Shown: positions 2,722 to 46,744 of the stretch, one piece after another
How positions within the stretch are numbered: position 1 is the first letter of the stretch
Layout: each line of letters starts with the position of its first letter
DNA from: Nitrospinota bacterium
Lineage (GTDB): Bacteria > UBA8248
NCBI GenBank assembly: GCA_036231405.1
Contig: JAZAHK010000023.1
Location: 1-48,529, forward strand
Reading direction: 5' to 3'
DNA length: 48,529 bases
Position numbers and translations under genes: made by a program
Notes under the pieces: model-generated
Databases searched by the model: none
The model's input: only the letters and a program-made list of their open reading frames with translations
What the model was told of the DNA's origin: nothing

Positions 2722-3363
2722 TCAATTCCTTTTCGATATGTCCTCAATATATTTTCTATCTTCCAAAATAAAATCCTGAGTCCAGGTACATAATTCTTTA
2801 TAAAAGAATGTTTTGGAATCTCTTTCTATGGCTGTCAGATAAATAGGTGCCCATTTTAGTAAGTGATTGTCTAGAAATTTCGATGACAAATTCAACCATT
2901 TGTAATATTCATTTTCGTTCTCATCGGTGAGACTGTTGTGTTGATTTTTTGCCAGATGGGACATGAATTCTAATTCTACGCTAATATGGTCCATTGACAT
3001 TACACTATGAAATTTTTGCCCTACATTCTTTGCACCAGGGTTGAAGCCTGTATGTCTGAAGAAATCATTTACGTTGTCGGTTATCTTGGAATTTAAGAAA
3101 CCACTTTCATCTAATAAGACGGATTCATATGGTGGAGACGAAAGGACAAATAAATTAGTAAAATCTGTTCTTAGATTTTTAATCAAATCCTCTAAAGGAA
3201 TATCATTTTCCCTGAAAAGAAATGAGTAATTTTCATTGAGAAATTTCAATAACTTTATTTCTGGAGGGTCCAGAAGAGCGATAGACATTACCCTATACAA
3301 CTCTTCTCTTAATTTTGATTGTAGATTTAGTTCCTCAAAGGTTTCGGAACGTCTAGGCCAAAT
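2722..3363 (-). CDS. TorD/DmsD-family molybdoenzyme maturation chaperone (start uncertain: ATT at 3363 or TTG at 3300)
   Basis: PPYES, DHISVELEFM, FLDNHLLKW and FY motifs; directly downstream of the molybdoenzyme; reading frame is open upstream to an ATT 8 nt after AAGGAG. Confidence 0.85.
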   Translation of the reverse strand: MWPRRSETFEELNLQSKLREELYRVMSIALLDPPEIKLLKFLNENYSFLFRENDIPLEDLIKNLRTDFTNLFVLSSPPYESVLLDESGFLNSKITDNVNDFFRHTGFNPGAKNVGQKFHSVMSMDHISVELEFMSHLAKNQHNSLTDENENEYYKWLNLSSKFLDNHLLKWAPIYLTAIERDSKTFFYKELCTWTQDFILEDRKYIEDISKRN

Positions 3364-3368
3364 TTTTT

Positions 3369-6242: not shown

Positions 6243-6258
6243 TTCTTCTCCTTGAAAA

Positions 6259-11267: not shown

Positions 11268-11268
11268 A

Positions 11269-12285
11269 TTGGAAGCAAAAGTTGAAATAAAGGAATTAGG
11301 TTTAACACGGAAAGATTTTCAGTCTAATCAAGTGGTTAGATGGTGCCCTGGTTGTGGAGATTATGCGATTTTGGCGCAGATGCAGAAACTTTTACCTGAA
11401 TTGAATATCCTCAGGGAAAATTTCGTTTTTGTAGGTGGAATAGGTTGTGCTGCAAGATTCCCTTATTACATGAACACTTATGGTTTCCATACAATTCATG
11501 GTCGCGCACCTTCATTTGCTACCGGTATGAAAGTTACTCAGCCAGATTTGTCTGTATGGGTTATTTCTGGAGACGGTGATGCTCTAAGTATAGGAGGAAA
11601 TCATCTGATTCACACTATGCGGAGGAATGTCGGTGTGAAAATTCTACTTTTTAATAATCGTATTTATGGATTAACTAAAGGACAATATTCTCCTACTTCT
11701 CTAGTGGGTTCTAGGACAAAGTCTACACCTGTCGGCTCGGTAGATTCTCCTTTACATCCCCTTACTTTAGCACTTGGCGCAGAATGTACTTTTATTGCAA
11801 GAACAGTAGATAGAGATCAAAAACATATGGGCTCTGTCTTGAAGGCTGCTGCAGAACATGAAGGTACTGCATTTGTAGAAATTTTACAAAATTGTATCGT
11901 TTTCAATGATGGTGCATGGAGTCAATATACTGAAAAAGGTGTTAAGGAAGAAAATGTTGTTTATTTGGAAGATGGTCAACCTCTTCTTTATGGCTCAAAA
12001 GAGGATAGAAAAGGTGTGGCCTTTGATGGTTATAACTGTGTGGCGGTTTCTTCAGATTCTGAAGATGTGATAGTGCACGATCAGAAGGAAGAAACAGGCG
12101 CATATGCATATATGCTTAGTAGAATGGAGACTGAAGGTGGGCCTGTTCCGCTTGGAATATTTAGGCAGATTAATAGAACTGTTTTTGAGCAAGAGGTTCA
12201 ATCCCAAGTAAAAGATGCAGAATCTAAGAAAGATCCCGATATAGACATTCTTCTAAAGAGTGGGGATGTCTGGGAACATAAGTAG
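11269..12285 (+). CDS. korB: 2-oxoacid:ferredoxin oxidoreductase beta subunit
   Basis: WCPGCGD, GIGC, HGRA, TPP motif GDGD...NN, YGLTKGQYSPT; TTG start after GAGGAG. Confidence 0.95.
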   Translation: MEAKVEIKELGLTRKDFQSNQVVRWCPGCGDYAILAQMQKLLPELNILRENFVFVGGIGCAARFPYYMNTYGFHTIHGRAPSFATGMKVTQPDLSVWVISGDGDALSIGGNHLIHTMRRNVGVKILLFNNRIYGLTKGQYSPTSLVGSRTKSTPVGSVDSPLHPLTLALGAECTFIARTVDRDQKHMGSVLKAAAEHEGTAFVEILQNCIVFNDGAWSQYTEKGVKEENVVYLEDGQPLLYGSKEDRKGVAFDGYNCVAVSSDSEDVIVHDQKEETGAYAYMLSRMETEGGPVPLGIFRQINRTVFEQEVQSQVKDAESKKDPDIDILLKSGDVWEHK

Positions 12286-14586: not shown

Positions 14587-16869
14587 CTATATTTTTTCGA
14601 GTTCTATTCTATAACTGTTAAACGTTGCATTTTCGTATTCGGAAAGGATGTCCCCGGTCAGTTTGTTAGCCATGCCCATTTCTTCATCTCCACCCGCAGG
14701 AATATGGACAACTCCCTGTCGAATTGACTCTGTAGTTCTAGCAACGAATTGAGTTTCGCCAAAATCGTTGAACAAACGGATCGAATCGCCATTCCTAATT
14801 TCACGTTCTTTTGCATCTTCTATGTTTACTGTCGCAACGTTGAAGTGATGTCTAAGAAGTTTTTTGGCATTGTTGAATGTGGAACTTGCCCGGAAATATG
14901 TTTTCGGGGTTATCAGTTTGAGTGGATATTTCATTTGTTCAGGCTGCATAATCTCTTGTGGTGGAGTATGCTCTGGAACAGGATGTTTTTTGTCTTCAAA
15001 ATAAATTTGGGCACGTCCATGTTTGGTTTTCAAGTCCCAAGAAACTTTTCCTTCTGGAATATCTAAGCTAATTACGCCTTTTTTTTCTAGATCTTCTATA
15101 TTTAGGTTCTTAAACCACGGGAAGCGGGAATCTTTGTTAGCAAGAGTGATTAAATTTTCTATCCATTGTTTAGAACTAGTCCAAGGGAAAAACTCTTTGA
15201 ATCCCATTTTTTCCGCAAGCCGGCAGATAAAATCGAAATCATCCATCGCTTCTCCTAGAGGATTAAGTACCCCAGGCGAGTAGAAAATCTGATGTTTTGG
15301 TTTTCTTTCTTCGATGAGATGGTAAAAAGTAGAACCGACTTCCATTCCTTCTGAAATAGTGCAACGTTCGAGCCAAGTAGTTGCAGGAAGTATTATGTCT
15401 GAGCATTTTGCTGTTGGAGTGAGGAAGATATCCGAAACAACACAGAAATCCAGAGAAAGTAATGCTTTTTTCGTTTTATTTGTATTCCCTCCCTGTCCTA
15501 CAGGATTTCCCCACATAAATAGTCCTGCATGAATTGGTCCGCCATAAGTTTCAGGTTTTAAGATTGCTTCAGCAATTTTTCCAATTGGCACGGTTCTTTT
15601 CACAGGATTGGGAATAGACCAGTTTTCCGCCATTACTCTTGATAGTCCTGTTTCTGTTGCTCTTTCAGGCTGGTAATCGTGCGTTGTCGATCCATGGTTT
15701 AGAACCCCTTCGATTCCTCCGGAAATAAGATTCAAAATGTGTAACGCTCTAACTGCATTTTCTCCTTTGAACGTTCTTTGATATGCACCGTAGTAGACTA
15801 TAATTTTCCCGTTTGTTAGTGCAGAGGCGATGTCCTTGATACTGCTAGAAGGAATGCCACATTCTTTTTCTACTGCTTCTTCTGTCCATTTTTCAGAGGA
15901 TTTTTGCAGGAGTTTGAAAGCGGTGGAGCATTTTTCTTCATTGATTGTTTTATGTGCATACAAATCAGGGTTTTTGGACCTTTCGTAATGAACTGCCTTT
16001 TTTAAATTTGTATCCCATACTAGAGGTCCACCATTATTGTCAGTAATGAATTTTCCATCCGATTCTCTAACAAGAAAAGGGGCATTTGTTCTTTTTGTAA
16101 GAAAATTCTTGTTTAGATGATTATGTTTGAGTACAAAACGTAGTACGCCAAGAGCTAATGCGGTATCGGTTGAGGGTTCAATTGGAATGTGAATATCGGC
16201 AAATCTCTCAACTGTCTTTGTCCTCATTGGGTCTACAACTATAAATTTTGTTCCTTGACGCTTTGATTCCTGAAGAGACTGCAAGAGGCCTCTGTACCCA
16301 GTTTCAATCGGATTGTTTCCCCAAAGTATTATCCAATCACATTCGTCGCTGTTTTTATTCTTTATTTGCCACTGACCAAGTACATCGTCACTTGCACCTA
16401 GAAAAGCGCTCCAGCAAAGACTTCCCCTGTTGAAAGCTTCTATTGCTCCTCCCCATAAATTTAGAAGTCTCATGATGGTGGCAGGGGCAGCGTCTCTTCC
16501 CCCTGGAAGGGTATGTTGTGAGGAATAATTGTACATTAAAATACTATTATTCCCACCTTTGTTTTTTGCATCTTCCAATCCATTTGCAATGGATGTTATG
16601 GCTTCATCCCATGAAATTCTTTCGAAATTGTTGTATCCGTTTTTTCCACTCCCTTTTTTGCCAACTCTTTTCATGGGATATAAGACTCTATCAGGGTGAT
16701 TGTATCTATCAGGTATTTGAAAACCTTTGATACAGGGTTTTATGTCCATCCTTGGATTGGCACGGAATGAAATGATTTCTTCACCCTTGGTTTTGACTTC
16801 AAAACTACACGGATAATTCCCACAGTGCGGAGCACAAGTGGTAAATGTTGATTTTTCAAGTTTGTCCAT
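14587..16869 (-). CDS. stand-alone DMSO-reductase-superfamily molybdopterin oxidoreductase, no Tat signal
   Basis: CAPHCGNYPC...PCIKG, DRVLYPMKR, FERISWDEA, GSLC, WGNNP, VDPMRT, DIFLTPTA..SDIILPATTWLE, YPLKLIT. Confidence 0.9.
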   Translation of the reverse strand: MDKLEKSTFTTCAPHCGNYPCSFEVKTKGEEIISFRANPRMDIKPCIKGFQIPDRYNHPDRVLYPMKRVGKKGSGKNGYNNFERISWDEAITSIANGLEDAKNKGGNNSILMYNYSSQHTLPGGRDAAPATIMRLLNLWGGAIEAFNRGSLCWSAFLGASDDVLGQWQIKNKNSDECDWIILWGNNPIETGYRGLLQSLQESKRQGTKFIVVDPMRTKTVERFADIHIPIEPSTDTALALGVLRFVLKHNHLNKNFLTKRTNAPFLVRESDGKFITDNNGGPLVWDTNLKKAVHYERSKNPDLYAHKTINEEKCSTAFKLLQKSSEKWTEEAVEKECGIPSSSIKDIASALTNGKIIVYYGAYQRTFKGENAVRALHILNLISGGIEGVLNHGSTTHDYQPERATETGLSRVMAENWSIPNPVKRTVPIGKIAEAILKPETYGGPIHAGLFMWGNPVGQGGNTNKTKKALLSLDFCVVSDIFLTPTAKCSDIILPATTWLERCTISEGMEVGSTFYHLIEERKPKHQIFYSPGVLNPLGEAMDDFDFICRLAEKMGFKEFFPWTSSKQWIENLITLANKDSRFPWFKNLNIEDLEKKGVISLDIPEGKVSWDLKTKHGRAQIYFEDKKHPVPEHTPPQEIMQPEQMKYPLKLITPKTYFRASSTFNNAKKLLRHHFNVATVNIEDAKEREIRNGDSIRLFNDFGETQFVARTTESIRQGVVHIPAGGDEEMGMANKLTGDILSEYENATFNSYRIELEKI

Positions 16870-16988
16870 TTTGATTCCGTTTAATATGTGGTTTTTAATT
16901 AATACTTTACAGTATCAGTGAACCATTTTATCATGTCTTGTAGGTATTTTAAAAATTTAATTTCTAACTATGCTAACGGGAGGCACAA

Positions 16989-23398: not shown

Positions 23399-24664
23399 TT
23401 ATTTTTTCATTTCTACCAAATGGTAGTTCTTCTTTCCTTTTCTCAGTAAAACATATTTGTCGAAGAGAAGTTTTTCCTTAGAAATTTCCGTTTTTTCTTC
23501 TGTGATTCTTTCGTTGTTAAGATATATCCCTCCGCCAGCAATGTCGTTGCGTGACATGGTTTTAGATTTAGATACGCCTGTAAGTGTTAAAATATCTGTG
23601 AGTAAAATCGGCAGCTTTCCTTCGTATAAGGTATATGGCATTTCATTAGAGACAGAAACTAAATCCTCTTCGCTTATTCCATCTATTTTGCCTGTAAAAA
23701 GCAAATCTGTAACTCTCAATGCACTTTCCGTAGCGGAGCCACCATGAACAAAAGTGGTGAGTAATCTCGCAAGTTCAAGTTGTGCTTCACGTTTTTCAGG
23801 GTTGTCCTTTTGTGCGGTAGCAATTTCCTTAATTTCTTTTTTTGCAAGAAAAGTAAAGTAAGATAAAAATTTGATGACATCTTCGTCGTTAGTTTGTATC
23901 CAGTATTGATAAAATTGGTATGCACTTGTGAGTTCAGGGTCTAGCCAAATATTCCCCTCCTCAGTTTTTCCAAATTTTCTGCCGCTGGAGGTAGTGATGA
24001 GTGGGAAGGTTATTCCCCATATGTTTTTTCCTCTCATCCTACGAACTAATTCAATTCCGGCAGTAATATTTCCCCACTGATCGGAACCCCCGATTTGCAA
24101 TTGGCATTTTTCTGTATCGAATAAATGAAGAAAATCATATGCTTGGAGGATCATGTAGGTGAATTCTGTGTATGAAATGCCTCGTTCGTTGATACGGTTC
24201 TTCACAGACTCTTTCGACATCATATATCCTATGGAGAAATTTTTCCCGATATCTCGTAGAAATTCAATCATATTCATTTTACTAAGCCAATTATTGTTAT
24301 TAAGGATTTTTGCCGAATTAGAACCGCACTTGAAATCAATGAGATTTTGTAACTGAGATTTAATTCCTGCAATATTTTTTTCTAATATTGCTTCATCAAG
24401 AAGATTTCTCTCTTCAGACTTTCCTGCGGGGTCCCCGATCATTCCTGTCCCACCCCCGATAAGAATGATAGGAGTATGTCCATATTTTTGAAATCTTGCT
24501 AGAGAAACAATCGGCATGAGGCTTCCAACGTGTAAGCTAGTTGCTGTTGGATCAAATCCACAATAGACAGGCAACGATTTTGTCGAAAGGGCACTTATCA
24601 TTTCTGGGTTGTCCGTGTAATCGTGGAGTAGTCCTCTTATTTCTAAATCTTCTACAATATTCAT
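23399..24664 (-). CDS. tyrS: tyrosine--tRNA ligase
   Basis: YCGFDPTATSLHVGS, LQAYDF, QIGGSDQWGNI, KFGKT, C-terminal S4-like domain ending RKGKK. Confidence 0.98.
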   Translation of the reverse strand: MNIVEDLEIRGLLHDYTDNPEMISALSTKSLPVYCGFDPTATSLHVGSLMPIVSLARFQKYGHTPIILIGGGTGMIGDPAGKSEERNLLDEAILEKNIAGIKSQLQNLIDFKCGSNSAKILNNNNWLSKMNMIEFLRDIGKNFSIGYMMSKESVKNRINERGISYTEFTYMILQAYDFLHLFDTEKCQLQIGGSDQWGNITAGIELVRRMRGKNIWGITFPLITTSSGRKFGKTEEGNIWLDPELTSAYQFYQYWIQTNDEDVIKFLSYFTFLAKKEIKEIATAQKDNPEKREAQLELARLLTTFVHGGSATESALRVTDLLFTGKIDGISEEDLVSVSNEMPYTLYEGKLPILLTDILTLTGVSKSKTMSRNDIAGGGIYLNNERITEEKTEISKEKLLFDKYVLLRKGKKNYHLVEMKK

Positions 24665-24779
24665 GGATACTCCTGAACTGAAAGTTTGAGGTATACTAAG
24701 AAACGATTTTTGTTCTATAAGAAAAATAGCGGCGGCCTTGTATTCTTTTTACACGTTTTTTTTGCGCGGGGAAAGTTCT

Positions 24780-25526
24780 TTGTCACTTGATTTTAATTTT
24801 GAGGGAAAAAAAATTCTTCTGACGGGAGTAACAGGGGACGTCGGAAGTGTTCTTGCAAGTTCTTTTTTGGAATATGGAGCAAAGCTTTATGGTATCGGAA
24901 AAAGTCCTGAAAAAATTAATGCGATGCAGAGTTTAGAAGGAATAGCCAAATACGTTGCAGTTGATTTCAATGAGATAGAAAAAATAAAGACGACTGCACG
25001 CAAGGGCCTAAATTGGCTAGGAGGTTGCGATATCTTCATTCACACTGCAGCCTATATGCAAGTGAATGATCCCTTGTCACTTAGCGAAAGTGACTGGAAA
25101 TACGCATTGAACATCAATTTGCTTGCGCCCTATTTTTTTATCCAAGAAGCTTTTCCGTTTTTGTGTAAGTCTTGCTCAGGTAGAATTATTCTGTTTGGAT
25201 CCGGTGCTGGAAAACACGGAGGTATAGGAACCAACCTAAGCTATGGAGCTTGTAAGGGAGGAATCCTAGCTATGGTATTCAACTTGGCCAGAGAGTTTGC
25301 AAAGACAAAAGTTACAGTAAACTGCCTGGTTCCTGGTCCGATAGATGGACGTATGATGAAACAATTTGATCAAACTACACTCAAAGCTTCTTTGTCTAGG
25401 CATCCAATGGGAAGGTTTGGATTGCCTGAAGAGATTGTTTCTGCCACTCTTTTTTTGGCAAGTGAAGAAACTGCCCATATTAATGGAGAGGCATTTGATG
25501 TGAATGGTGGATATTATACAGATTAA
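24780..25526 (+). CDS. SDR family oxidoreductase
   Basis: TGVTGDVG, YGACK, NCLVPG, HPMGRFG.PEE, INGEAFDVNGG; probable TTG start at 24780 after GGGGA. Confidence 0.88.
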   Translation: MSLDFNFEGKKILLTGVTGDVGSVLASSFLEYGAKLYGIGKSPEKINAMQSLEGIAKYVAVDFNEIEKIKTTARKGLNWLGGCDIFIHTAAYMQVNDPLSLSESDWKYALNINLLAPYFFIQEAFPFLCKSCSGRIILFGSGAGKHGGIGTNLSYGACKGGILAMVFNLAREFAKTKVTVNCLVPGPIDGRMMKQFDQTTLKASLSRHPMGRFGLPEEIVSATLFLASEETAHINGEAFDVNGGYYTD

Positions 25527-25549: not shown

Positions 25550-25894
25550 ATGGACGAAGCCGGAAAACAAAAATATGAAGAAATGCTTTCGAAAAGAGGA
25601 TTTGTGTTTCCTTCTTTTGAACTACTTTGTGATATGGATCCAGAACTCATAGAACGTTATGAAAATCTTAAGGACTATATCATGGGGAAAGAGAGTGCGA
25701 TGCCTGAAAAGCTTCGTGAGTTATTCATATCTATTGCAATCGCAGTTCGTAATCCTTCCGCTCATAATCAAATTAAACTTCATTTGCAAAGAGCCACGAA
25801 GTTAGGAGCAACACATCAAGAATGTTTGGAAGCATTTGAGTCAATACTCGCCCCATGTGGTATGATGATACTTATTGCGGGATGTGAGGCCTGA
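25550..25894 (+). CDS. carboxymuconolactone decarboxylase/AhpD-like protein (3' end possibly frameshifted, true end 25926)
   Basis: PEKLRELFISIAIA, HLQRATKLGAT.QECLEA; GGGGAG SD. Confidence 0.85.
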   Translation: MDEAGKQKYEEMLSKRGFVFPSFELLCDMDPELIERYENLKDYIMGKESAMPEKLRELFISIAIAVRNPSAHNQIKLHLQRATKLGATHQECLEAFESILAPCGMMILIAGCEA

Positions 25895-27701: not shown

Positions 27702-27851
27702 AAATTTTATATCCCCAAAAATAATATGTAGTATATGTTTATATTATTGATTATTATTTCGTGTTTTTCGAGTATGTGTTTTGAAAAATACCCGGAGAAC
27801 AGACTATTGCATTTAATTTTAAATTTGGAAAAATTTTGAAAGGAAATCTCT

Positions 27852-28601
27852 ATGCGTTTAGAAAATAAAAAAGCAATTGTGACTGGAGCAGGTGGTGGCA
27901 TAGGGAGTGCAATCTGTTTCGATTTTGCAAAAGAGGGTGCTGCCGTAATATGTCTAGATATTAATGAAGAATCTGCAAATCAAACCGCTGCAAAGATAAA
28001 GGAAAATGGTGGAAAAGCAATAGCTATGGTAGCAGATGTTTCTGAAGAAAGTGCGGCGGTAGAGGCTGTGAAATTAGCAGTAGATTCTTTTGGGGGACTC
28101 AATATTCTTGTTAGTAATGCGGTTATGGATCTTGAGCATGGGCCTTTGACAGAAATTGATGCGGAAGACTGGCGACGTGTTATGGATGTGAATTTTAATA
28201 GTTCATTTCTGTTTTCAAAACATGCTATCCCCGAAATGGAAAAAGAAGGAGGGGGTAGTATCATATTAATTGCTTCGCAGCTGGGGCGAGTGGCAAGGCC
28301 TGGAAGACCTTGGTACTGCGGTGCTAAAGGAGGATTGATTAATATGGCACGCGCAATCGCTCTGGACCATGCAAAACAAGGGATACGTTGCAACACTATT
28401 TCTCCTGGCCCTATAGAAACCGGTCGATATGTCAGAAATTATGATAACGTAGAGCACGCGCGTCAAAATAATTTCACTCTATTCGATCGTTTAGGCCGTC
28501 CAGATGAAATTTCACCAGGAGCGGTGTTCCTTGCTAGTGATGAATCTTCTTTTATGACTGGTTCTGACCTTCTGATAGATGGCGGTTTTACTGCCGTATA
28601 A
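27852..28601 (+). CDS. SDR family oxidoreductase
   Basis: TGAGGGIG, SNA, YCGAKGG, GIRCNTISPG, FLASDESSFMTG..L.IDGG. Confidence 0.93.
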   Translation: MRLENKKAIVTGAGGGIGSAICFDFAKEGAAVICLDINEESANQTAAKIKENGGKAIAMVADVSEESAAVEAVKLAVDSFGGLNILVSNAVMDLEHGPLTEIDAEDWRRVMDVNFNSSFLFSKHAIPEMEKEGGGSIILIASQLGRVARPGRPWYCGAKGGLINMARAIALDHAKQGIRCNTISPGPIETGRYVRNYDNVEHARQNNFTLFDRLGRPDEISPGAVFLASDESSFMTGSDLLIDGGFTAV

Positions 28602-31926: not shown

Positions 31927-32093
31927 TGGTTCTCCACTGTTATGGTTTTAAAAGTTAACAAACGAACGTGGCTAAATCTTTTTATATTTTTATTATAAAC
32001 GTAGTTGACCTAGTAATTCATCCACTATACATTTTTTTCTTGATTCTGTGATATAGCCAATTAGACCGAAACCTGTTTTCTTGTGGAGTTTTA

Positions 32094-32777
32094 ATGAGCC
32101 GAGTAACACTTCTGATTCAATCTTCGATTGGAACCAAATTAGTAATGGCAGTCTCAGGACTTCTTCTGTTTCTTTTCGTGATTGCACATATTCTAGGAAA
32201 CCTTCTTGTTTTTCTTGGTCCAGAAGCTGCGAATGCTTATGCTCAAAGTTTAAAAGATCTTGGAGGACTTCTTTGGATTGCGAGGATTGGTCTTCTCGTC
32301 GTTTTTATTGTTCATATTGCATCTGCAGTAAGACTTTGGCGAATAAATAAGAGTGCGAGGCCTAACGATTATTCTGAGTTAGAATCTATGGCTACGTCAA
32401 TTTCAGCTAAATCTATGATTTTAAGTGGGTCTTTAGTTCTTGTATTTGTAGTCTATCATTTGTTGCATTTTACCTTACATATTACAAATCCAGAAATTGG
32501 CCATTTAGTAGATTCTCAAGGAAGGATTGACGTGTACAAAATGATTGTTATGGGTTTCTCTGATGTGAAAGTTTCAATTGTTTATATCGTTGCAATGATT
32601 CTCCTTGGATTACATTTAAATCATGGAATTTCTAGTCTTTTCCAAACACTTGGGATTGCAAACTATGCAGAGAATATCGCCTTAAAAAAAGCAGGTTCTA
32701 TTTTGGCGTTTTTAATATCGGTGGGTTTTATTTCTATACCCCTATCGGTTATTGCGGGACTTTTAAAACTCCCATAG
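32094..32777 (+). CDS. sdhC: succinate dehydrogenase/fumarate reductase cytochrome b subunit
   Basis: [14 protein letters not shown]; five TM helices; His in AHILGN, VHI, YHLLHF and LHLNHG..S.FQTLG. Confidence 0.95.
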
Positions 32778-32790
32778 AGAGGTTTGTGGA

Positions 32791-34704
32791 ATGAAAATTG
32801 ATTCGAATATACCTTCGGGTCCTTTAGAGAGTAAGTGGGATAATAGTCGTTTTGAAATGAAACTAGTTAATCCTGCTAATAAACGTAGATATAGGGTAAT
32901 TGTAGTTGGTTCTGGGCTAGCCGGAGGTGGTGCCGCAGCGACACTTGGAGAACTTGGGTACAATGTAGATTGTTTTTGTTTCCAGGACAGTCCGCGAAGA
33001 GCGCATAGTATTGCTGCACAGGGTGGTATTAATGCGGCAAAAAATTATCAAAATGATGGAGATAGTATTTATCGACTCTTCTACGATACCATTAAGGGTG
33101 GTGATTTCCGTTCTCGCGAGGCGAATGTTTACCGACTTGCGCAGGTTAGCGCAAATATTATCGATCAATGTGTTGCAATGGGTGTTCCTTTTGCTCGTGA
33201 ATATGGTGGTCAACTTGCAAACCGTTCTTTTGGTGGGGCGCAGGTTTCTCGAACTTTTTATGCAAGAGGACAAACTGGACAACAACTTCTCCTAGGTGTT
33301 TATGCTGCGCTAAGCAGGCAGATTGAAACTGGTCAGGTTCGAATGCATACTAGAACGGAGATGCAGGACCTAGTTTTGATTGATGGTAAGGCAAAGGGTA
33401 TTATTGCTAGAAATCTGGTTACTGGAGAGTTAGAAACTCACGCGGCAGATGCAGTTATACTTGCTACAGGAGGGTATGGCCCTGTTTTTTACCTTTCAAC
33501 AAACGCGATGGGCAATAATGTTAGCGCTACCATTAAGGCATATAAGAAAGGGGCTGTTTTCGCGAACCCTTGCTACACCCAAATACATCCAACTTGTGTT
33601 CCAGTTACTGGTGATCATCAATCTAAGCTCACGCTGATGTCTGAATCCTTACGAAATGATGGACGTGTCTGGGCACCGAAGACTGCAGGTGATAAACGTC
33701 ATCCAGACGAGATACCCGAAGAAGAACGTGATTATTATTTAGAGCGTTTGTATCCCAGTTTTGGCAATTTGGCTCCAAGAGATATTTCATCTAGAGCAGC
33801 TAAACGCGCATGTGATGAAGGTCGTGGTGTTGGAGATACCGGTCTCGGTGTGTATCTTGATTTTAGAGATTCAATAGAAAGATTGGGACTTGATCTCGTA
33901 AAACAGAGATACGGCAACCTTTTTGATATGTACGAGAAAATTACCGGTGAAAATGCATATAGTATTCCTATGAGGATTTATCCTGCTGTTCATTACACCA
34001 TGGGTGGTTCGTGGGTAGATTATAATTTGATGAGCAATATTCCTGGACTTTTTGTACTTGGTGAAGCAAATTTTTCTGATCATGGTGCGAATAGACTTGG
34101 CGCAAGTGCTTTAATGCAGGGGTTGGCAGATGGATATTTTGTTGCCCCGTATACTGTAAGTAATTACCTTGCAGGTGAGAAATACGGTGAAGTGACGAAC
34201 GAGAAAGATGAATTTAAAGAAGCTTTGAATAGTGTCGATTCCCAACTAGATCGGTTGCTCAATATTAAAGGTAACCGCACAGTAACTTCTTTCCATAGGG
34301 AACTCGGCCTTCTTTGCTGGGAATATTGTGGAATGTCGAGAACGAAAGAAGGGTTAGAGAAGGTTTTGAATTTGATTCCCGCTCTAAAAGAAGAGTTTTG
34401 GCAGAACGTAAATGTTCCAGGTGCTGGGAATGAAAGTAACGGAGAACTGGAAAAAGCAGTTCGAGTTGCAGATTTCCTAGATTTTGGAGAACTTATGTGC
34501 AGAGATGCCTTGAACAGAGAAGAGTCATGTGGTGGTCATTTCAGGGAAGAACACCAGACCGAAGAGGGAGAAGCCTTAAGGGATGATGAGAATTTTTCTC
34601 ATGTTTCTGCTTGGGAGTATAAAGGAGAGTCCCAAGTTCCTGAATTACACAAAGAAAATCTAGAATTTGAGTCTGTGAAACCTAGTGTAAGGAGTTATAA
34701 GTAA
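32791..34704 (+). CDS. sdhA: succinate dehydrogenase/fumarate reductase flavoprotein
   Basis: [57 protein letters not shown]. Confidence 0.97.
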
Positions 34705-35450
34705 TGAAATTGACCCTACGTGTCTGGCGTCAACAGAACAGTCAGGAAAAAGGTCATTTTGAGACGTATGAAGTTGACAATATCATGCAAGAAATGTCTT
34801 TCCTCGAAATGCTTGACGTAACGAATGAACAGTTGATTTTGGATGGGAAAAAACCAATAGCTTTTGACTATGACTGTAGAGAAGGTATCTGTGGTATGTG
34901 TTCACTCGTTATCAATGGGAAAGCTCACGGTGGCAATAAAGGGACAACTACATGCCAGTTGCATATGAGATTTTTTGAAGATGGAGATACGATTACGATT
35001 GAACCCTTTAGATCAAAAGCTTTTCCAGTCATAAAGGATCTGATTGTCGATCGTTCCTCTTTTGACCGTATTATTCAAAAAGGCGGGTATATTTCTGCAA
35101 ACTCAGGAAGTGCGCCAGATGGGAATTCTATCCTCGTGCCCAAGCAGGATTCTGATTTGGCAATGGATGCTGCTCAGTGTATTGGATGTGGTGCGTGTGT
35201 GGCATCTTGTCCCAATGGTTCAGCAATGTTGTTTGTTTCTGCTAAAGTCTCCCATCTTTCTAACCTTCCTCAGGGTCATCCCGAACGGAAAAAGCGTGTT
35301 CTTAAGATGGTGGAACAGATGGATGGTGAAGGTTTTGGGAATTGTACTAACCATGCCGAATGTGAAGCTGCGTGTCCTAAAGAAATAAGTATTAGCCATA
35401 TTGCTAAAATGAATCGTGAATTTATCAGTGCTACCCTTTCGGGCAAATAG
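34704..35450 (+). CDS. sdhB: succinate dehydrogenase/fumarate reductase iron-sulfur subunit
   Basis: [39 protein letters not shown] coupling to sdhA. Confidence 0.97.
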
Positions 35451-41209: not shown

Positions 41210-41572
41210 CTATTTCACTAGTAGTAGCTTGAAGCCCACACCGATACACAGAATTGCTACTGTTCTTTTGATTAGATGTGGGGATACAACACTTAATACG
41301 TACGCTCCTACATATCCCCCAAAAATGCCACCCGCTGCCATCCATAATAGATATTGCCAGACGATATATCCCCTTTTAAGGTTTTCAAAAGAAGCCATTG
41401 CATTTACAAATAAGGCAGCAAAAACTGAAAGAGCAATCGCTTGTTTCGGATTTAGAAATGGTAGGGAAAGGAGGATAGGTACGTTGATGATTCCCCACCC
41501 AATTCCGGTAGCCGAATTAATTGCACCTATGATAACGCCTATTGCTAAAAGAAAAAAACCATACGGATCCAC
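41210..41572 (-). CDS. half-size TauE/SafE (TSUP) family membrane protein
   Basis: GAINSATGIGWG..NVP.L, P.QAIA.S, G.FGGYVGA; GTG start 6 nt after GGAGG. Confidence 0.8.
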   Translation of the reverse strand: MDPYGFFLLAIGVIIGAINSATGIGWGIINVPILLSLPFLNPKQAIALSVFAALFVNAMASFENLKRGYIVWQYLLWMAAGGIFGGYVGAYVLSVVSPHLIKRTVAILCIGVGFKLLLVK

Positions 41573-41709: not shown

Positions 41710-41784
<75 letters not shown>

Positions 41785-43446: not shown

Positions 43447-43794
43447 ATGGAGTCATATCATTGGGATGAAATTGTTTCACACGACAAGGGAGATAGGATA
43501 CAGAGTGTGATTGCAGGAGAAAGAATAACTGTTTTACGGCAAAGGATACGTGCTGGAGAAAAAATTTATAATCCGCATGCACATCATCAAGAGCAGATTA
43601 GTATAGTGCTCGAAGGAAAAGCAAAATTCTTTTTTGGGGATAAAGAAGTTGTATTGTCTAGGGGAGGTGTTGTCGTTTTTCCACCCGATAAGGAGCATGC
43701 TACGGAAAATGTAGGAAGTGGAGATCTTGTTATAGAAGAAATATTTTCCCCAGGGAATGAAATACTAAACGAGATTGCAGCTACTCCTGATTAG
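43447..43794 (+). CDS. cupin domain protein
   Basis: PHAH.QEQ..IVLEG and G.VV.FPP...H motifs; GGAGGAG SD. Confidence 0.92.
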   Translation: MESYHWDEIVSHDKGDRIQSVIAGERITVLRQRIRAGEKIYNPHAHHQEQISIVLEGKAKFFFGDKEVVLSRGGVVVFPPDKEHATENVGSGDLVIEEIFSPGNEILNEIAATPD

Positions 43795-44617
43795 TTTTTT
43801 TTGTTTTTGCTATAAAATTTTTCCAGATTTCCCAATATAGCCTTCCTCCGACACTGAATGTGTCGTTGTGGTTTGCTCCTTTTATTTCAAAAAACTGTTT
43901 TGGTTCAGAAGCTAGGCGAAATAGATTTTTCCCTTGTTGAATTGGAACTATTGTATCTTGGTTGCCATGTAGTATTAGTAGTGGAATTTGAACTGAACTG
44001 ATGACCCCTCTTGTGTCGTATCTTTGTTTGATCATCCATTTGAGTGGGAGAAAAGGAAAAATTTTCTTTCCCATTTCGATCGTATTTTCAAATGGTGATT
44101 CCAGAATCAAAGCTTGTGCAGATTTTTTTTCTGTAGATAATTTGGCTGCTATTGCAGCACCTAAAGATCTTCCGAATAGAACGATACGATTTTCAGGAAT
44201 CCTTTTTGAAAGCCAAGCATATGCTCCTACTATGTCTGAATACAAACCTTTTTCACTAGGGACTCCTTCACTTAACCCGTAACCTCGGTAATCAAAAATA
44301 AAAACTCCCACATCCAAATATTTCTGCATAAGTAAAATATTTTCTATCCGATGTGAAATATTTCCAGCATTGCCATGGGACCAAAGTATTACAGAATTAT
44401 CCATACTTTGGGGCGGAAAGTACCATCCGTGTAATTTTGTGTTGTCGAATGAAGAAAATCTCACTTCTTTAAATTTAAAATTTAACTCTTCAGGATTAGA
44501 GTTTATAGACTGAGAAGGATGGTATAAGAAGAAATTCTCAATTCTATTAAAGAAACTTATCATCAAGATTCCTAGAAAGATGAGGATGCAAAAACTTAGG
44601 GATATAATTTTACGCAA
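43781..44617 (-). CDS. alpha/beta hydrolase with N-terminal membrane anchor (ABHD13/Bem46-like)
   Basis: HGNAGN, FDYRGYG.SEG.PSE.GLY, GRSLG, HG.QD.IVP, GANHND. Confidence 0.92.
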   Translation of the reverse strand: MRKIISLSFCILIFLGILMISFFNRIENFFLYHPSQSINSNPEELNFKFKEVRFSSFDNTKLHGWYFPPQSMDNSVILWSHGNAGNISHRIENILLMQKYLDVGVFIFDYRGYGLSEGVPSEKGLYSDIVGAYAWLSKRIPENRIVLFGRSLGAAIAAKLSTEKKSAQALILESPFENTIEMGKKIFPFLPLKWMIKQRYDTRGVISSVQIPLLILHGNQDTIVPIQQGKNLFRLASEPKQFFEIKGANHNDTFSVGGRLYWEIWKNFIAKTKKTNQE

Positions 44618-44629
44618 TCTTGTTAGTCT

Positions 44630-45058
44630 TTAATTATCTTGGAAGATTTCTACATGCAATTTTTTTATGCATAAGTCTTGAATTGTTACTATCCCTTCTT
44701 TAACAAGGATATCTCTGCTAGTTGGGTCATAAATACCCTCTTGCATCCAAAAATATTTAGGTATGTATTTCATTTTTAGAGTCTCCCTTGTTAATCGTGG
44801 AATTTCATTCTTTCTTCTGAAAATGTTTATCATGTCAACTTCTTCTTCTATTTTTAGAAGAGAGTCATATGCCTTTATACCTAAGGATTCATCGATATTA
44901 GGATTCACGGGAATAATTTTGAAATTATTTTTTTGTAGGAACTCTGCAATTTTATAACTCGTTCTGTGTTCTTTGTTAGATAGACCAACGATAGCGATGG
45001 AATTAGTCTGTTCCAGTATGCGAGAAATAGTTTCTTTGTCAGGATTTGTGTCTATCAT
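44630..45058 (-). CDS. CoA-binding protein (YccU-like)
   Basis: IAIVGLS...RTS, IIPVNP, VDMINIFR, WMQEG, DLC; ATG at 45058 after AGGA. Confidence 0.92.
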   Translation of the reverse strand: MIDTNPDKETISRILEQTNSIAIVGLSNKEHRTSYKIAEFLQKNNFKIIPVNPNIDESLGIKAYDSLLKIEEEVDMINIFRRKNEIPRLTRETLKMKYIPKYFWMQEGIYDPTSRDILVKEGIVTIQDLCIKKLHVEIFQDN

Positions 45059-45208
45059 TTTTGTAGTCCTATAATTTTTACAATGACAAGTAATAATTTT
45101 CGTTTGTGTTACAATTTTTGTAGTGATGTAAAAGAATTTTACATCCATTAATTATGAAACTAAAGCATTATAAAGAAAAACCAGAATTTCAAATTGAGGA
45201 TATGAAAA

Positions 45209-45892
45209 ATGCATAAAATGAAGACAATCCAAATTTTTCACGAGTATCACTGACCATGGGCTTATCTTGCCGCGGCGCGGTTAGATCATGTCTGGGAAGA
45301 GTTCGAAGGTTCTGCTCATCTTAATTGGAGAGCTTTTCCTTTAGAAATAATTAATAAAAGACCTGCCCCAAGACATATAGTCGATCAGGAATGGCCATTG
45401 GTAGCAGTTCAAGAACCACTTGCTCCTTGCGCTGCATGGCCACATGAAGAATATGTGCGGACGACTTTACTAGCATATGAAGCATATAAATGTGCTTTTC
45501 TTCAATCTCCAGCTAAATCGAGAGAATTTGATTTGAAATTAAGGCGTGCTTTCTTTTATGAAGGGAGAAGAATAGATGAAAATGATGTGCTTTGCGAAAT
45601 TGCTTCTGAGTCTAATTTGGACGCAGATAAAGTTCGAAATGATCTAGAGTTAAGGCGTTTTCAAAATGCTGTAATTGAAGACTATGATGATTCTATGAAT
45701 CTTAGAGATGAGAAACAGATTCCGATGACGAGTCCTACTTTAATTTTCCCAAATGGAAATATCGTTCATAACCCATATGCATCTGAGAAAAAGATTGAAA
45801 ACGGAAAATTGATTGAAGTTCATGCTCCAACTGCATATGGCGAAGATGTTTATGGAGGTTTTAGAAAAATTTTGAGGGATGGTTTACTTTAG
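45209..45892 (+). CDS. DsbA/FrnE-like thioredoxin-fold protein with in-frame TGA (probable selenocysteine, UxxA motif)
   Basis: GAGGA SD, ATG at 45209, MHKMKTIQIFHEYH-TGA(45251-45253)-PWAYLAAARL...WRAFPLE, continuous with ORF 45398..45892, which carries RRAFF and cis-Pro SPT. Confidence 0.85.
45254..45290 (+). promoter_or_regulatory. putative bacterial SECIS element
   Basis: CATG..ATCT-T-GCCGC-[GGC]-GCGGT-T-AGAT-CATG hairpin; G-initiated apical loop 20 nt after the UGA. Confidence 0.7.
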
Positions 45893-45925
45893 TAATCACA
45901 AATTTTCGCATGATAGGATCAATTG

Positions 45926-46744
45926 ATGCAATTTAGAAAATTGGGGCGGACTGATTTTTTAGTAAGTGAGATAGGATTGGGGACGTACAAGAATCTTGAT
46001 GTTGAAACCACTGAAGGACAATTACATTGTAATGCACTAGTAAAGGAAGCAGTGAAATACGGAGTAAATTTTTTTGATACTGCCCCTATGTACGGAAACT
46101 CTGAAAAAGTTCTAGGAAATGCAATGTATCCTATTGAAAATAAATGCTTTTATGCAAGTAAAGTACTTGAGTCAAATCCTAGAAATGCGTTTGAAAGTAT
46201 AGAACGAACCTTGATTAGATTACAGGTCGATACGATAGATCTTATGCAAATTCATAATATGTCTTCATGGAGAGAGGTTACTCCAGTACTGGAAGAGTTC
46301 AGGAAAGAAGGGAAAATACGTTTTATTGGAGTTACTGATTACCGTGTTTCAAATTATCCAGAAGTTTTAACGGCTCTTAAAACCGGAGTGTTTGATACGG
46401 TACAAATTCCTTATTATTTGGGGGAGAAAACCTGTAAAGATTTTTTATTCCCGGTTGTTAGAGATTTGAATATTGGAGTAATTGTGATGACTCCAATTTC
46501 TCCAATTTTTGCAAGAGGAAGCTTGACTAATAAACTCTCTACAAAGGATATTAGTTTTTTGAAAGCATTTGGTATCAACACTCCTGGTCAGGCACTTTTG
46601 AAATATCTTCTGTCAGATCCAGATATTTCCACAATTATTCCCGCTACGAGTAAAATTAAAAGAATTAGCGAAAATGTTTTGCCTTCTGACGAAATTTTTT
46701 TAGATGCTGAGTCAATAGAAAGACTTGAGTCTCTGTTGGAATAA
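45926..46744 (+). CDS. aldo/keto reductase
   Basis: FRKLGRT...VSEIGLGT, FFDTAPMYG.SE, IDLMQIHN, GKIRFIGV. Confidence 0.93.
   Translation: MQFRKLGRTDFLVSEIGLGTYKNLDVETTEGQLHCNALVKEAVKYGVNFFDTAPMYGNSEKVLGNAMYPIENKCFYASKVLESNPRNAFESIERTLIRLQVDTIDLMQIHNMSSWREVTPVLEEFRKEGKIRFIGVTDYRVSNYPEVLTALKTGVFDTVQIPYYLGEKTCKDFLFPVVRDLNIGVIVMTPISPIFARGSLTNKLSTKDISFLKAFGINTPGQALLKYLLSDPDISTIIPATSKIKRISENVLPSDEIFLDAESIERLESLLE

Follow-up and report, generated by a model that had tools for sequence, protein, structure and literature searches.

Organization of the locus

The DNA analysed here (hereafter, the window) is a stretch of 48,529 nucleotides from contig JAZAHK010000023.1 of a Nitrospinota bacterium. Positions 45209 to 45892 of its forward strand most likely make up a single gene, which annotation cuts at an internal TGA and whose product would be a cytoplasmic selenoprotein of 227 residues with a DsbA fold of the FrnE branch. 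Starting at ATG 45209, the frame reads MHKMKTIQIFHEYH, then TGA (45251..45253), then PWAYLAAARLDHVWEEFEGSAHLNWRAFPLE, and stays open to a TAG stop at 45890-45892. The first-pass annotation, made from the sequence alone, had proposed this read-through frame and its start, and both were borne out: the translation yields 227 residues with a single internal TGA at 45251, and a Shine-Dalgarno-like GAGGA (45196..45200) lies 8 nt 5' of the ATG. In the 5' direction the reading frame can extend no further than an in-frame TGA at 45203..45205, two codons ahead of the ATG; when TGA is translated as U, an ORF that starts at TTG 45194 contains two TGAs. Gene calling under translation table 11 gives a shortened ORF (45398..45892, forward strand, TTG start, 164 aa), which, as had also been noticed, is the C-terminal part only.

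The neighbouring genes were assigned by Pfam and compared with those of 37 related loci that form a clade with the window (see below). A divergently transcribed gene for a CoA_binding_2 (PF13380) protein occupies 44630..45148 on the reverse strand, and 31 of the 37 clade loci have a homologue upstream, versus none of 42 loci from a sister clade. An alpha/beta hydrolase gene of the Hydrolase_4 family (43781..44617, reverse strand) is present in 35/37 clade loci, and a small cupin gene (43447..43794, forward strand) in 31/37. On the other side, 30 nt 3' of the selenoprotein stop, an aldo/keto reductase gene (45923..46744, forward strand) is probably co-transcribed with the selenoprotein gene. 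It is found downstream in 29/37 clade loci, in some of them with an intervening AAA_14/DUF4143 gene.

Fold of the read-through protein

The read-through protein matched two Pfam families above their gathering scores: PF01323 (DSBA), over residues 6-160 and thus across the TGA (E 3.9e-10), and PF13743 (E 6.5e-11). No NCBIfam family was matched at E<=1. AlphaFold2 predicted a complete DsbA fold (pLDDT 94.1, pTM 0.91) in which strand beta-1 starts at residue 5 and helix alpha-1 spans residues 16-32. As beta-1 begins so early in the model, a signal peptide would not fit in front of it, and the protein is predicted to be cytoplasmic. The best PDB matches were FrnE structures 5CO3 and 5CNW (Foldseek E 5e-9, TM 0.63), the top five PDB matches were all FrnE, and a profile match to FrnE was also obtained (E 6.2e-12).

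The TGA had been placed by the first-pass annotation at the attacking cysteine of the FrnE motif, and profile alignment sets it exactly there, on the DIACPWCY segment of Deinococcus radiodurans FrnE, where it is aligned to Cys22. Model and alignment together show the predicted Sec15 capping the N-terminus of helix alpha-1 where the C-P-W-C motif of FrnE has its nucleophilic cysteine. Pro176 (codon CCT, 45734..45736), invariant in 78/78 sequences, precedes the third beta strand (residues 177-179 in the model) and occupies the cis-Pro position of thioredoxin folds.

Conservation of the TGA codon

The codon column was examined in 80 sequences, comprising 79 loci that retained the N-terminus plus the window. 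The window's own clade has 38 members (37 relatives and the window), and aligned counts are often given over 37. At codon 15, 61 of the 80 sequences have TGA and 19 have TGC or TGT, while TAA and TAG are absent (0/80). When the rest of the motif is considered, the set is divided into TGA followed by PWA (38 sequences), TGA followed by PWC (23), TGC/TGT followed by PWC (16) and TGC/TGT followed by PW[S/T] (3). Alignment of homologues shows Cys or TGA at residue 15 with conservation on both flanks, the pattern that the first-pass annotation had named as support for its proposal.

All 38 members of the window's clade, which come from Nitrospinota, Tectomicrobia and other MAGs, carry FHEYH-TGA-PWAY. 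The residues F-H-E-Y-H before the TGA are invariant (37/37), while their codons shift synonymously (TTT in 28 and TTC in 9; CAC in 22 and CAT in 15). In distant homologues, H-C-P-W-A-Y appears as the cysteine counterpart of the exact motif.

Translation of TGA as U lengthened several genes of the window in the ORF list; the four longer N-terminal extensions added in this way to Pfam-supported genes were translated, and the others were judged from the list. Candidates for a second selenoprotein at 31968-32777, 16750-16926 (reverse strand), 27735-28000 and 24663-24900 were rejected as chance-like and without a conserved Sec site. None of selA, selB, selD and tRNA-Sec genes was found within the 48.5-kb window, nor any tRNA-Sec gene in the flanks of the 38 clade loci.

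A SECIS-like hairpin downstream of the TGA

An RNAalifold consensus of the 38 clade sequences detected a hairpin core at 45268..45282 (forward strand), with a 6-bp stem (45268-45273 paired with 45277-45282) and a GGC loop (45274-45276) whose first G lies 23 nt after the U of the UGA. According to PMC1088965, a bacterial SECIS is a stem-loop that directly follows the UGA and has a G in its small apical loop, and the 6-bp stem with its GGC loop 3' of the TGA agrees with this description. The larger hairpin initially reported, ATCT-T-GCCGC-GGC-GCGGT-T-AGAT extended by CATG/CATG (45255..45290), is indeed present and is the minimum-free-energy fold of 45251-45292 (-11.7 kcal/mol). Of this structure, the 6-bp GC core is conserved, whereas the outer ATCT/AGAT and CATG/CATG stems occur in the nearest relatives only: among 34 distinct clade sequences, just 8 to 16 keep these lineage-specific pairs.

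The conservation of the core is extreme at the nucleotide level. Twelve bases 3' of the TGA, GCCGCGGCGCGG, are invariant in 37 of 38 clade sequences; the sole substitution, in locus L037, falls within the loop, and the core is retained in clade loci spanning 34-71% GC. Codons +6 to +9 are GCC (37/37), GCG (37/37), GCG (36/37) and CGG (37/37), while four-fold codons elsewhere in the gene have entropies of 0.7-1.9 bits and CGG is used at other Arg sites of the gene in only 3-4 of 37 sequences. These codons are rare in the window, which has 38% GC: GCC and GCG make up 12.9% and 15.0% of Ala codons and CGG 3.9% of Arg codons, and the product of the core codon usages is about 1e-4.

By folding energy, the hairpin of the window's sequence is no more stable than expected by chance, as no length tried was significant against dinucleotide shuffles. 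Shuffles folded as well in 82/200 cases for 60 nt (z -0.13), 65/200 for 42 nt (z -0.33), 12/200 for 23 nt (z -1.74) and 11/200 for 15 nt (z -1.60). Two-sided changes were found in 0 of the 6 RNAalifold pairs within the UPWA clade, and for a 10-pair structure the values observed in this clade were reached by 500/500 shuffles. Covariation within the clade is absent because the core never varies, and in the absence of compensatory changes the case for structure in this clade rests on invariance. In the sister clade with U-P-W-C, a hairpin is found at equal distance from the TGA; compensatory changes occur in 3/12 pairs, and pairing in its apical stem amounts to 98.5%, which 1/500 shuffles attained. 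The sequences of the two elements differ (GCCGC-GGC-GCGGC in the UPWA clade, GGC-CGUGC-GCC with a bulged U in the sister clade). An Rfam scan of the whole window at the gathering threshold detected only a tRNA-Asn, and a permissive scan of 45150-45400 (E<=10) returned three chance matches and no SECIS family.

Altogether, it is the comparative pattern (TGA in 38/38 clade members plus the invariant 12-base core) and not the hairpin of a single sequence that goes beyond chance. These data support the view that the core is under constraint as RNA, at the distance from the UGA that a SECIS would have, and it is quite likely to be the SECIS itself. Invariance of the core could, in principle, reflect another constraint acting on the nucleotide sequence.

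Relatives of the gene

The 37 related loci of the UPWA clade are recorded as Nitrospinota (14), Tectomicrobia (2) and other MAGs (21), and the closest relatives of the window are recorded as Nitrospinaceae. The sister clade, with U-P-W-C or C-P-W-C motifs, is made of Chloroflexota and Gemmatimonadota sequences that are 33-37% identical. In a quick tree with SH-aLRT support only, the UPWA clade was monophyletic (15/15 rows, support 100, stem length 0.58) and branched from a polytomy that also gave rise to the CxxC/UxxC sister clade, to a Cxx[AGST] clade of 38 rows and to a CP[Y/H]A clade. On the side of the tree where the window stands, 47 of 83 rows have Cxx[A/G/S/T] forms. Cys-form CPWA, CPYA and CPWS homologues are common, with 43 CPWA and 10 CPYA motifs among 148 library representatives; a CxxA site as such is no rarity among DsbA-like homologues.

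The first-pass annotation had anticipated that gene callers would truncate this protein. This prediction proved correct in public databases: in all 61 predicted proteins with more than 55% identity, the first residue lies beyond the active site, and they are recorded as truncated "hypothetical" proteins or DsbA fragments. Among these 61 proteins, no Cys-form orthologue was found inside the clade.

Active-site and clade-specific residues

At position 18 the codon GCT (45260..45262, forward strand) encodes Ala in place of the resolving cysteine of the CxxC motif. Ala is found at this position in 37/37 aligned clade members, versus Cys in 38/41 members of the sister clade. Because the partner cysteine is Ala, the motif becomes U-P-W-A, and its presence in 38/38 clade members upholds the earlier reading of a UxxA site without a resolving cysteine.

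A second trait is Cys74 (codon TGC, 45428..45430, forward strand), which is invariant in the clade (37/37), while the sister clade has Phe (41/41). In library homologues, position 74 is W, F or Y in 39/47 Cxx[AGST] rows, and in the 20 CxxC rows it is F in 15 and Cys in one. The opposite distribution is seen for two C-terminal cysteines: Cys209 is present in 4/37 clade sequences versus 41/41 in the sister clade, and Cys214 in 0/37 versus 41/41. Besides Cys74, the residues His11, His14 and Pro78 are specific to the clade and invariant (37/37), and His79 is found in 36/37. As judged from these alignments, the clade has lost both the resolving cysteine and the C-terminal CxxxxC of FrnE and has gained an invariant Cys74, which could be a remote resolving residue.

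Alternative explanations

The comparative sequence data make it very probable that the gene is genuinely decoded with selenocysteine. Were the locus a nonsense pseudogene or a gene for a shorter protein, translation would stop at TGA 45251 and the product, if any, would start at TTG 45398 ("MAAARLD" in the relatives). Table-11 calling and the 61 public predictions agree with that possibility, and an ATG is found at residue 20 in 19/37 relatives. However, residue 20 is Leu (CTT, CTG, CTA or TTA) in 18/37 sequences, the window included, so there is no conserved restart codon; a product begun at residue 20 or 64 would, in addition, be deprived of the active site and of strand beta-1. Purifying selection acts, in the frame of the gene, on the 14 codons that precede the TGA; all 61 stops are TGA, with no TAA or TAG among them; and two loci that do look damaged are different, as they show a frameshift (L039) or an extra stop (L064). 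We therefore regard loss of function or a shortened product as highly improbable. A sequencing or assembly error that turned TGT or TGC into TGA would require a single base only, yet the same error would have to be repeated in 37/37 independently assembled clade relatives and in 23 loci of the sister clade, which leaves it a negligible chance.

Read-through of the TGA with another amino acid also deserves consideration, either because near-cognate tRNAs insert Trp or Cys where UGA-C is leaky or because the codon was reassigned across the lineage. UGA followed by C is a leaky context in E. coli, and C follows the TGA in 61/61 sequences, since the next codon is a CCN proline codon. TGA is also rare as a stop in the window, where it terminates 4 of 41 Pfam-supported ORFs. 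Against this explanation, the 41 ORFs are full length without any internal TGA (0/41), and TGA therefore does not serve generally as a sense codon; the TGA column is that of the family's catalytic cysteine, a hallmark of Sec; and a strictly conserved hairpin lies at SECIS distance. Furthermore, Table 2 of BSepDB (PMC13326102) reports 54 selenoprotein genes for FO_M_Nitrospinota_01, a genome that carries an orthologue (locus L007). Insertion of an amino acid other than Sec is, in consequence, very unlikely. A different kind of alternative accepts the selenoprotein and makes Sec15 a ligand or binding residue, perhaps for a metal or metalloid together with His11, His14, His79 and Cys74. The conservation of these clade-specific residues and of Pro78, and the loss of both the resolving cysteine and CxxxxC, are compatible with such a role, and Sec is given as a metal ligand in some families in a review section (PMC13188914). 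Nevertheless, thiol-disulfide enzymes have this same fold, this Pro-Trp pair and the proline that Pro176 represents, the histidines are mostly absent from Cys-form CPWA relatives, and the conserved neighbourhood contains no metal-handling gene. A ligand role thus appears unlikely, and a redox enzyme that uses Sec as its sole nucleophile is the probable one.

With these alternatives weighed, we hold with considerable confidence that the locus is a genuine selenoprotein gene whose product has a FrnE-like DsbA fold and a U-P-W-A active site.

Comparison with known DsbA-like proteins

DsbA-like selenoproteins are already known as a class, with a "form 1" that belongs to COG2761/PF01323, and this published type resembles the protein described here in its fold, in the TGA at the first motif position and in the SECIS hairpin directly downstream. 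The motif listed for them in Table 3 of Zhang, Fomenko & Gladyshev 2005 (PMC1088965) is UxxC only, and the table of a 2026 review (PMC13188914) gives UxxC and DxxUP. The sister clade, with U-P-W-C and C-P-W-C, fits the UxxC type as described in those tables. The window's clade shares its DSBA Pfam domain but differs in several traits: the motif is U-P-W-A in 38/38 members, the C-terminal CxxxxC is missing, Cys74 is an additional invariant cysteine, and the SECIS sequence is another. Moreover, Cys homologues exist for the published type, while no Cys-form orthologue of the window's clade was found among the 61 predictions above 55% identity. A full-text literature search for "UxxA" together with "selenoprotein" found no paper. 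The suspicion raised in the first-pass annotation that a UxxA subfamily might be undescribed is thus in keeping with the motifs in these sources, and U-P-W-A would be a new motif within the known DsbA-like selenoproteins.

The best structural and profile match is FrnE of D. radiodurans (DR_0659; 5CNW, 5CO3, 5XWH), a cytoplasmic disulfide reductase. The protein encoded in the window has the DsbA fold with a helical insertion of the FrnE subfamily, FrnE is its closest solved structure, both proteins are cytoplasmic (by prediction in our case), and the active-site contexts are comparable (DIACPWCY and EYHUPWAY). Identity in structural alignments is, however, 16-19%, and of the CP(W/F)C active site only P-W and the position are kept, with Sec for the nucleophilic cysteine and Ala for the second one. 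In the account given in PMC8945050, the CP(W/F)C active site of FrnE is regenerated with the help of a C-terminal CxxxxC, which many but not all FrnE proteins have; this second motif is absent here.

A monothiol layout, with cysteine followed by alanine, is found in DR_2335 of D. radiodurans (7DK9; 7DKA is the C24S mutant), which has the same fold. The profile match (E 5.9e-9) aligns its DFLCPYAW segment, which contains C-P-Y-A, and U-P-W-A likewise combines one nucleophile with P-[W/Y]-A and lacks a second active-site cysteine. The single-cysteine CP[W/Y]A proteins differ in that they have Cys instead of Sec, mostly carry an aromatic residue at position 74 and are at most 35% identical to the window protein. 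According to the review text (PMC8945050), there are no experimental data for DR_2335-type proteins. More distant structural matches (E 1e-7 to 5e-6, 10-18% identity) include kappa-class GST, HCCA isomerase and Pseudomonas aeruginosa DsbM, all of them enzymes of the same fold with one nucleophile or with assistance of an external thiol. PDB titles among the glutathione-dependent DsbA-fold matches name complexes with GSH or S-hexylglutathione.

Discussion

The observations above permit a tentative scheme for the synthesis and the activity of the protein. From the comparative data, UGA codon 15 would be read as selenocysteine, and the recoding signal would be the hairpin within the coding sequence, 5'-(U/G)GCCGC-GGC-GCGG(C/U)U-3', acting as a SelB-binding SECIS element. 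The enzyme would be unable to cycle through a classical intramolecular bond of the CxxC type. Instead, Sec15 may attack a disulfide, a mixed disulfide or an oxidant to form a selenenylsulfide or a selenenic acid. Two ways of resolving this intermediate can be envisaged. One would employ the clade-specific invariant Cys74, and the other an external thiol, which a partner protein or a low-molecular-weight compound would supply in the manner known from monothiol enzymes with a thioredoxin fold. The glutathione-dependent DsbA-fold enzymes provide a working model for the latter, and a monoselenol that works with an external thiol is plausible. We consider the chances of Cys74 and of an external thiol as the resolver roughly even.

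A more speculative proposal, which we find possible but rather doubtful, is that the U-P-W-A clade is a distinct enzyme family with an obligate dependence on selenium, spread over Nitrospinota from the sea and the subsurface and over allied lineages. Its members would have a Sec15-Cys74 selenenylsulfide switch, or a Sec/His site involving His11, His14 and His79, in place of the CxxC/CxxxxC relay. They would act with the CoA-binding protein, the alpha/beta hydrolase, the cupin and the aldo/keto reductase on a mixed disulfide of a protein or of a small molecule, perhaps one connected with CoA or another low-molecular-weight thiol. If selenium were indispensable in such a family, the absence of Cys-form orthologues among the predictions would be explained.

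Whatever its partners, a Sec enzyme with neither a resolving cysteine in its motif nor a Cys-form orthologue offers a clean natural test of what Sec can do and Cys cannot. There is also an annotation gap: because the predictions are truncated (61/61) and no NCBIfam model exists for the family, an enzyme conserved over 37 clade loci appears in databases without its active site. A core of 12 bases that stays fixed while the gene around it evolves fast makes a simple comparative signature, which could reveal bacterial SECIS elements missed by energy-based tests. Nitrospinota are the main nitrite oxidisers of the sea, and a dedicated selenoenzyme would add one more trace-element dependency to this marine nitrite-oxidising guild.

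Reading frame and active-site codon

The gene at 45209..45892 on the forward strand is very probably a selenoprotein gene hidden by annotation. A Shine-Dalgarno-like GAGGA (45196-45200, forward strand), read again from the sequence, lies 8 nt upstream of the ATG at 45209, as the first-pass annotation had said, and an in-frame TGA two codons 5' of this ATG (45203-45205, forward strand) closes the frame. When the TGA at 45251-45253 (residue 15) is translated as U, the product reads MHKMKTIQIFHEYH-U-PWAYLAAARLDHVWEEFEGSAHLNWRAFPLE... and extends over 227 residues to a TAG at 45890-45892, which bears out the frame originally proposed. Under table 11, the ORF list holds nothing for this gene except an ORF starting with TTG (45398..45892, 164 aa), which is indeed the C-terminal part only. 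TGA is the rarest stop among the 41 Pfam-supported ORFs of the window (TAA 22, TAG 15, TGA 4; 38% GC) and is internal to none of them; hence, it is not a general sense codon in the window.

The early claim that gene callers truncate such genes was confirmed when 5.8 billion predicted proteins were searched. Among 94 matches, all 61 with >55% identity begin downstream of the active site, most of them with MAAARLD. Homologous loci were also sought in contigs, and the best 80 of 130 confirmed loci were analyzed; one of them (L035) lacks the N-terminus and was excluded from the codon count, which covers the other 79 and the window. TGA followed by PWA was found in 38 sequences, hereafter the UPWA clade (Nitrospinota 14, Tectomicrobia 2, other MAGs 21, plus the window). 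The remaining sequences have TGA followed by PWC (23, mostly Chloroflexota), TGC/TGT followed by PWC (16, from Chloroflexota, Gemmatimonadota and Thermomicrobiota) or TGC/TGT followed by PWS/T (3, Chloroflexota). Neither TAA nor TAG occupies the active-site codon in any of the 80 sequences. The alignment of homologues, suggested earlier as a check, thus yields TGA or TGC/TGT at residue 15 throughout, with conservation on both flanks. Directly before the TGA, F-H-E-Y-H is identical in 37/37 UPWA sequences while its codons vary synonymously, indicating that selection acts on the protein in this frame both before and after the TGA.

Two loci show damage that may reflect pseudogenes or assembly errors. 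In the UPWA locus L039:6028-6700 the reading frame changes from 0 to 2 some 73 codons past the TGA. The UPWC locus L064:3048-3434 is interrupted by an additional in-frame stop at a codon that specifies Arg in relatives, and the MAG of L064 contains another copy (L073) that is intact.

A conserved hairpin downstream of the TGA

The minimum free energy fold of 45251-45292 (-11.7 kcal/mol) is the hairpin described in the first-pass annotation, including its CAUG/CAUG extension. For the window alone, it does not fold better than dinucleotide shuffles, with z scores of -0.13 (60 nt), -0.33 (42 nt), -1.74 (23 nt) and -1.60 (15 nt). Rfam contained no family matching the hairpin, either with the whole window or with the local region.

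Comparison across the clade points to a conserved core. Codons +6 to +9 after the TGA are GCC (37/37), GCG (37/37), GCG (36/37) and CGG (37/37) in loci that range from 34% to 71% GC; codon entropy at the other four-fold-degenerate codons of the gene is 0.7-1.9 bits, and CGG is a minority codon at its other Arg sites (3-4/37). All three codons are rare in the 38%-GC window (GCC 12.9%, GCG 15.0%, CGG 3.9% usage). RNAalifold analysis of the 38 sequences yielded a 6-bp stem with a GGC loop (columns 18-23/27-32, window 45268-45273/45277-45282, forward strand). The sole core substitution, in L037:6043-6102, is a G to T change at the second loop position (Ala22 to Ser) that leaves the stem intact. 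Counted from the U of UGA, the first loop G comes 23 nt later, a spacing within the range of bacterial SECIS models and close to that of the E. coli fdhF element. The Sargasso Sea selenoproteome study describes bacterial SECIS elements as stem-loops that directly follow the UGA and have a small, G-containing apical loop (PMC1088965), a description that the predicted hairpin fits.

Within the clade, none of the 6 RNAalifold pairs shows compensatory changes, and the closing pair alternates between G-C and G-U by change on one side only. The 10-pair structure initially drawn is no better than chance (500/500 shuffles reach the observed values), and its outer pairs are held in just 8, 12 and 16 of 34 distinct clade sequences. 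The element therefore does not include the ATCT/AGAT and CATG/CATG stems, which characterize the window and its close relatives; what stands of the original hairpin is the GC core with its loop-initial G, 12 bases of which are unchanged in 37 of 38 sequences. At the corresponding distance from the TGA, UPWC members of the sister clade (UPWC/CPWC relatives) likewise have a hairpin, in which the loop is CGUGC, a U is bulged and 3/12 pairs show compensatory changes. Pairing in its apical 3-bp stem amounts to 98.5%, a level that 1/500 shuffles attained. Altogether, the putative SECIS core and the Sec/Cys column pass comparative tests, and we consider it likely that the hairpin core is a SECIS element.

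Fold and active site

In the read-through protein, Pfam detects PF01323 (DSBA) at residues 6-160, across the TGA, and PF13743 (Thioredoxin_5) at residues 79-184; NCBIfam gave no match. An AlphaFold2 model built on a 78-sequence alignment (mean pLDDT 94.1, pTM 0.91) shows a strand at 5-11 followed by a helix at 16-32, so that residue 15 caps helix alpha-1. As the fold starts at residue 5, leaving no room for a signal peptide, the modelled protein is presumably cytoplasmic. FrnE of D. radiodurans supplies the top five PDB structural matches (5CO3, E 5e-9, TM 0.63); next come a putative HCCA isomerase, DsbM, a kappa-class GST, YjbH and DR2335. Profile search also retrieved FrnE (E 6.2e-12) and aligned the TGA with Cys22 of DIACPWCY, the attacking position to which it had been assigned at first pass.

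Residues were counted in the 78-sequence alignment (37 UPWA and 41 sister sequences, from the best 80 of 130 loci). Position 18 is Ala in 37/37 UPWA members and Cys in 38/41 sister sequences, in agreement with the initial description of a UxxA site that lacks the resolving Cys. The sister-clade cysteines at 209 and 214 (41/41 each), found in 4/37 and 0/37 UPWA members, form a FrnE-like CxxxxC. Excerpts of a Deinococcus review propose that the C-terminal CxxxxC of FrnE regenerates the active site and report an observed Cys244-Cys22 disulfide (PMC8945050). Position 74 is Cys in 37/37 UPWA members and Phe in 41/41 sister sequences; among distant representatives it is W/F/Y in 39/47 with Cxx[AGST], and F in 15/20 and Cys in 1/20 with CxxC. 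Cys129 is found in 33/37 UPWA and 2/41 sister sequences. The UPWA clade has thus lost both known FrnE-type resolving devices and gained one new invariant Cys. Other UPWA-specific (near-)invariant residues include H11, H14, P78, H79, R121, D123, R166 and D167, and an M-T-S insertion specific to the clade precedes the invariant Pro176.

Genomic context

Four protein neighbours, identified by Pfam, recur among the UPWA loci and are each found in 0/42 sister loci, within the best 80 of 130 loci: a cupin (31/37; 43447..43794, forward strand, in the window), an alpha/beta hydrolase (35/37; 43781..44617, reverse), a divergent upstream CoA_binding_2 protein (31/37; 44630..45148, reverse) and a downstream aldo/keto reductase (29/37; 45923..46744, forward). 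In the window the latter starts 30 nt past the selenoprotein stop codon, and close relatives of the window likewise have nothing between the two genes. In L003:6947-8233, another UPWA locus, an AAA_14 + DUF4143 ATPase gene separates them, and about half of the UPWA loci are judged by the same spacing to carry this insertion. The neighbours would fit small-molecule or thiol-cofactor chemistry, and none of them fixes a substrate.

Farther out, the tRNA-Asn (GTT) at 41710-41784 (reverse strand), a few kb upstream of the selenoprotein gene, is also present in 13/38 clade loci, so that synteny reaches past the four protein neighbours. A 120-aa TauE/SafE-family ORF nearby (41210-41572, reverse) matches profile positions 1-109 of 237 and could be a truncated or split gene; the other strand carries an overlapping 130-aa ORF.

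Elsewhere in the window, three genes at 2722-7779 (reverse) encode a NarJ-like chaperone (Nitrate_red_del), a 957-aa molybdopterin oxidoreductase with an Fe4S4 domain and a fused 4Fe-4S dicluster + NrfD membrane subunit; the cluster resembles that of a Psr/Ttr/ACIII-type complex. Another molybdopterin oxidoreductase (760 aa) is encoded at 14587-16869. Genes for a two-subunit 2-oxoacid:ferredoxin oxidoreductase (9408-12285) and a succinate dehydrogenase/fumarate reductase set (membrane subunit, flavoprotein and Fe-S subunit; 32094-35450) are consistent with reductive TCA metabolism, which has been reported in Nitrospina.

Selenium use and published families

No Sec machinery is encoded in the window or in the flanks of the UPWA loci, and reading of the TGA = U ORF list and of N-terminal extensions revealed no second selenoprotein gene in the window. 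A 114-aa CMD/AhpD-like protein (25550-25894), whose family has selenoprotein members elsewhere, has no internal TGA; its TGA is the stop codon, with 2 sense codons beyond. Indirect support for selenium use in the clade comes from the genome of a relative: FO_M_Nitrospinota_01, which contains the homologous locus L007, is listed with 54 selenoprotein genes in Table 2 of BSepDB (PMC13326102). The BSepDB pipeline, which relies on tblastn of Sec/TGA pairs (PMC13326102), would probably pick up UPWA genes.

The first-pass suggestion that the UxxA type may be undescribed agrees with the literature families examined, which in the excerpts available give UxxC or DxxUP only. These are the 'DsbA-like protein' of the Sargasso Sea study (COG2761, nine sequences, UxxC; PMC1088965) and, in the table of a 2026 review, DsbA-like form 1 (PF01323, UxxC) and form 2 (DxxUP) (PMC13188914). 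'UxxA' does not occur in the text of that review (PMC13188914), nor together with 'selenoprotein' in literature full text; 'Nitrospin' with 'selenoprotein' gave nothing beyond BSepDB, and no bacterial FrnE selenoprotein is apparent from the titles and abstract openings of the matches listed for 'FrnE' with 'selenocysteine'. The UPWA protein lacks both UxxC/CxxC and CxxxxC, features by which the published families are defined, and is therefore classed here as a new type of DsbA-like selenoprotein outside 'form 1'.

Relationship to Cys-containing relatives

When the read-through protein was scored against 1.84 billion representatives, 283 matches were obtained (E<=0.001). Motifs among 148 listed representatives, counted by regular expression with a few spurious matches included, were CPWA (43), CPWC (22), CPYA (10) and CPWS (7); among them is H-C-P-W-A-Y, identical to the window's motif but for Cys in place of Sec. 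A quick maximum-likelihood tree of 102 rows (15/37 UPWA, 20/41 sister and 67 representatives of 190-270 aa with a motif; SH-aLRT support only, midpoint root) recovers UPWA as a single group with support of 100 and a long stem (0.58). Joined to it in one polytomy are the UPWC/CPWC clade, a 38-row all-Cxx[AGST] clade and a small CP[Y/H]A clade, and the deepest branch under this rooting separates them from classical CPWC FrnE-like proteins. DR2335, whose structure has been solved (7DK9) and which shows DFLCPYAW in the alignment, is a Cys form of CxxA; the UPWA clade is a Sec form. The DR2335 type is described in excerpts of the Deinococcus review as lacking functional data (PMC8945050).

From its sequence, the UPWA protein is predicted to work like a monothiol (monoselenol) FrnE-type oxidoreductase. 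Cys74 and an external thiol are candidate resolvers of the Sec intermediate, with roughly even chances. As the monothiol CxxA site is common in Cys form, the peculiarity of the UPWA clade is the Sec form together with Cys74.
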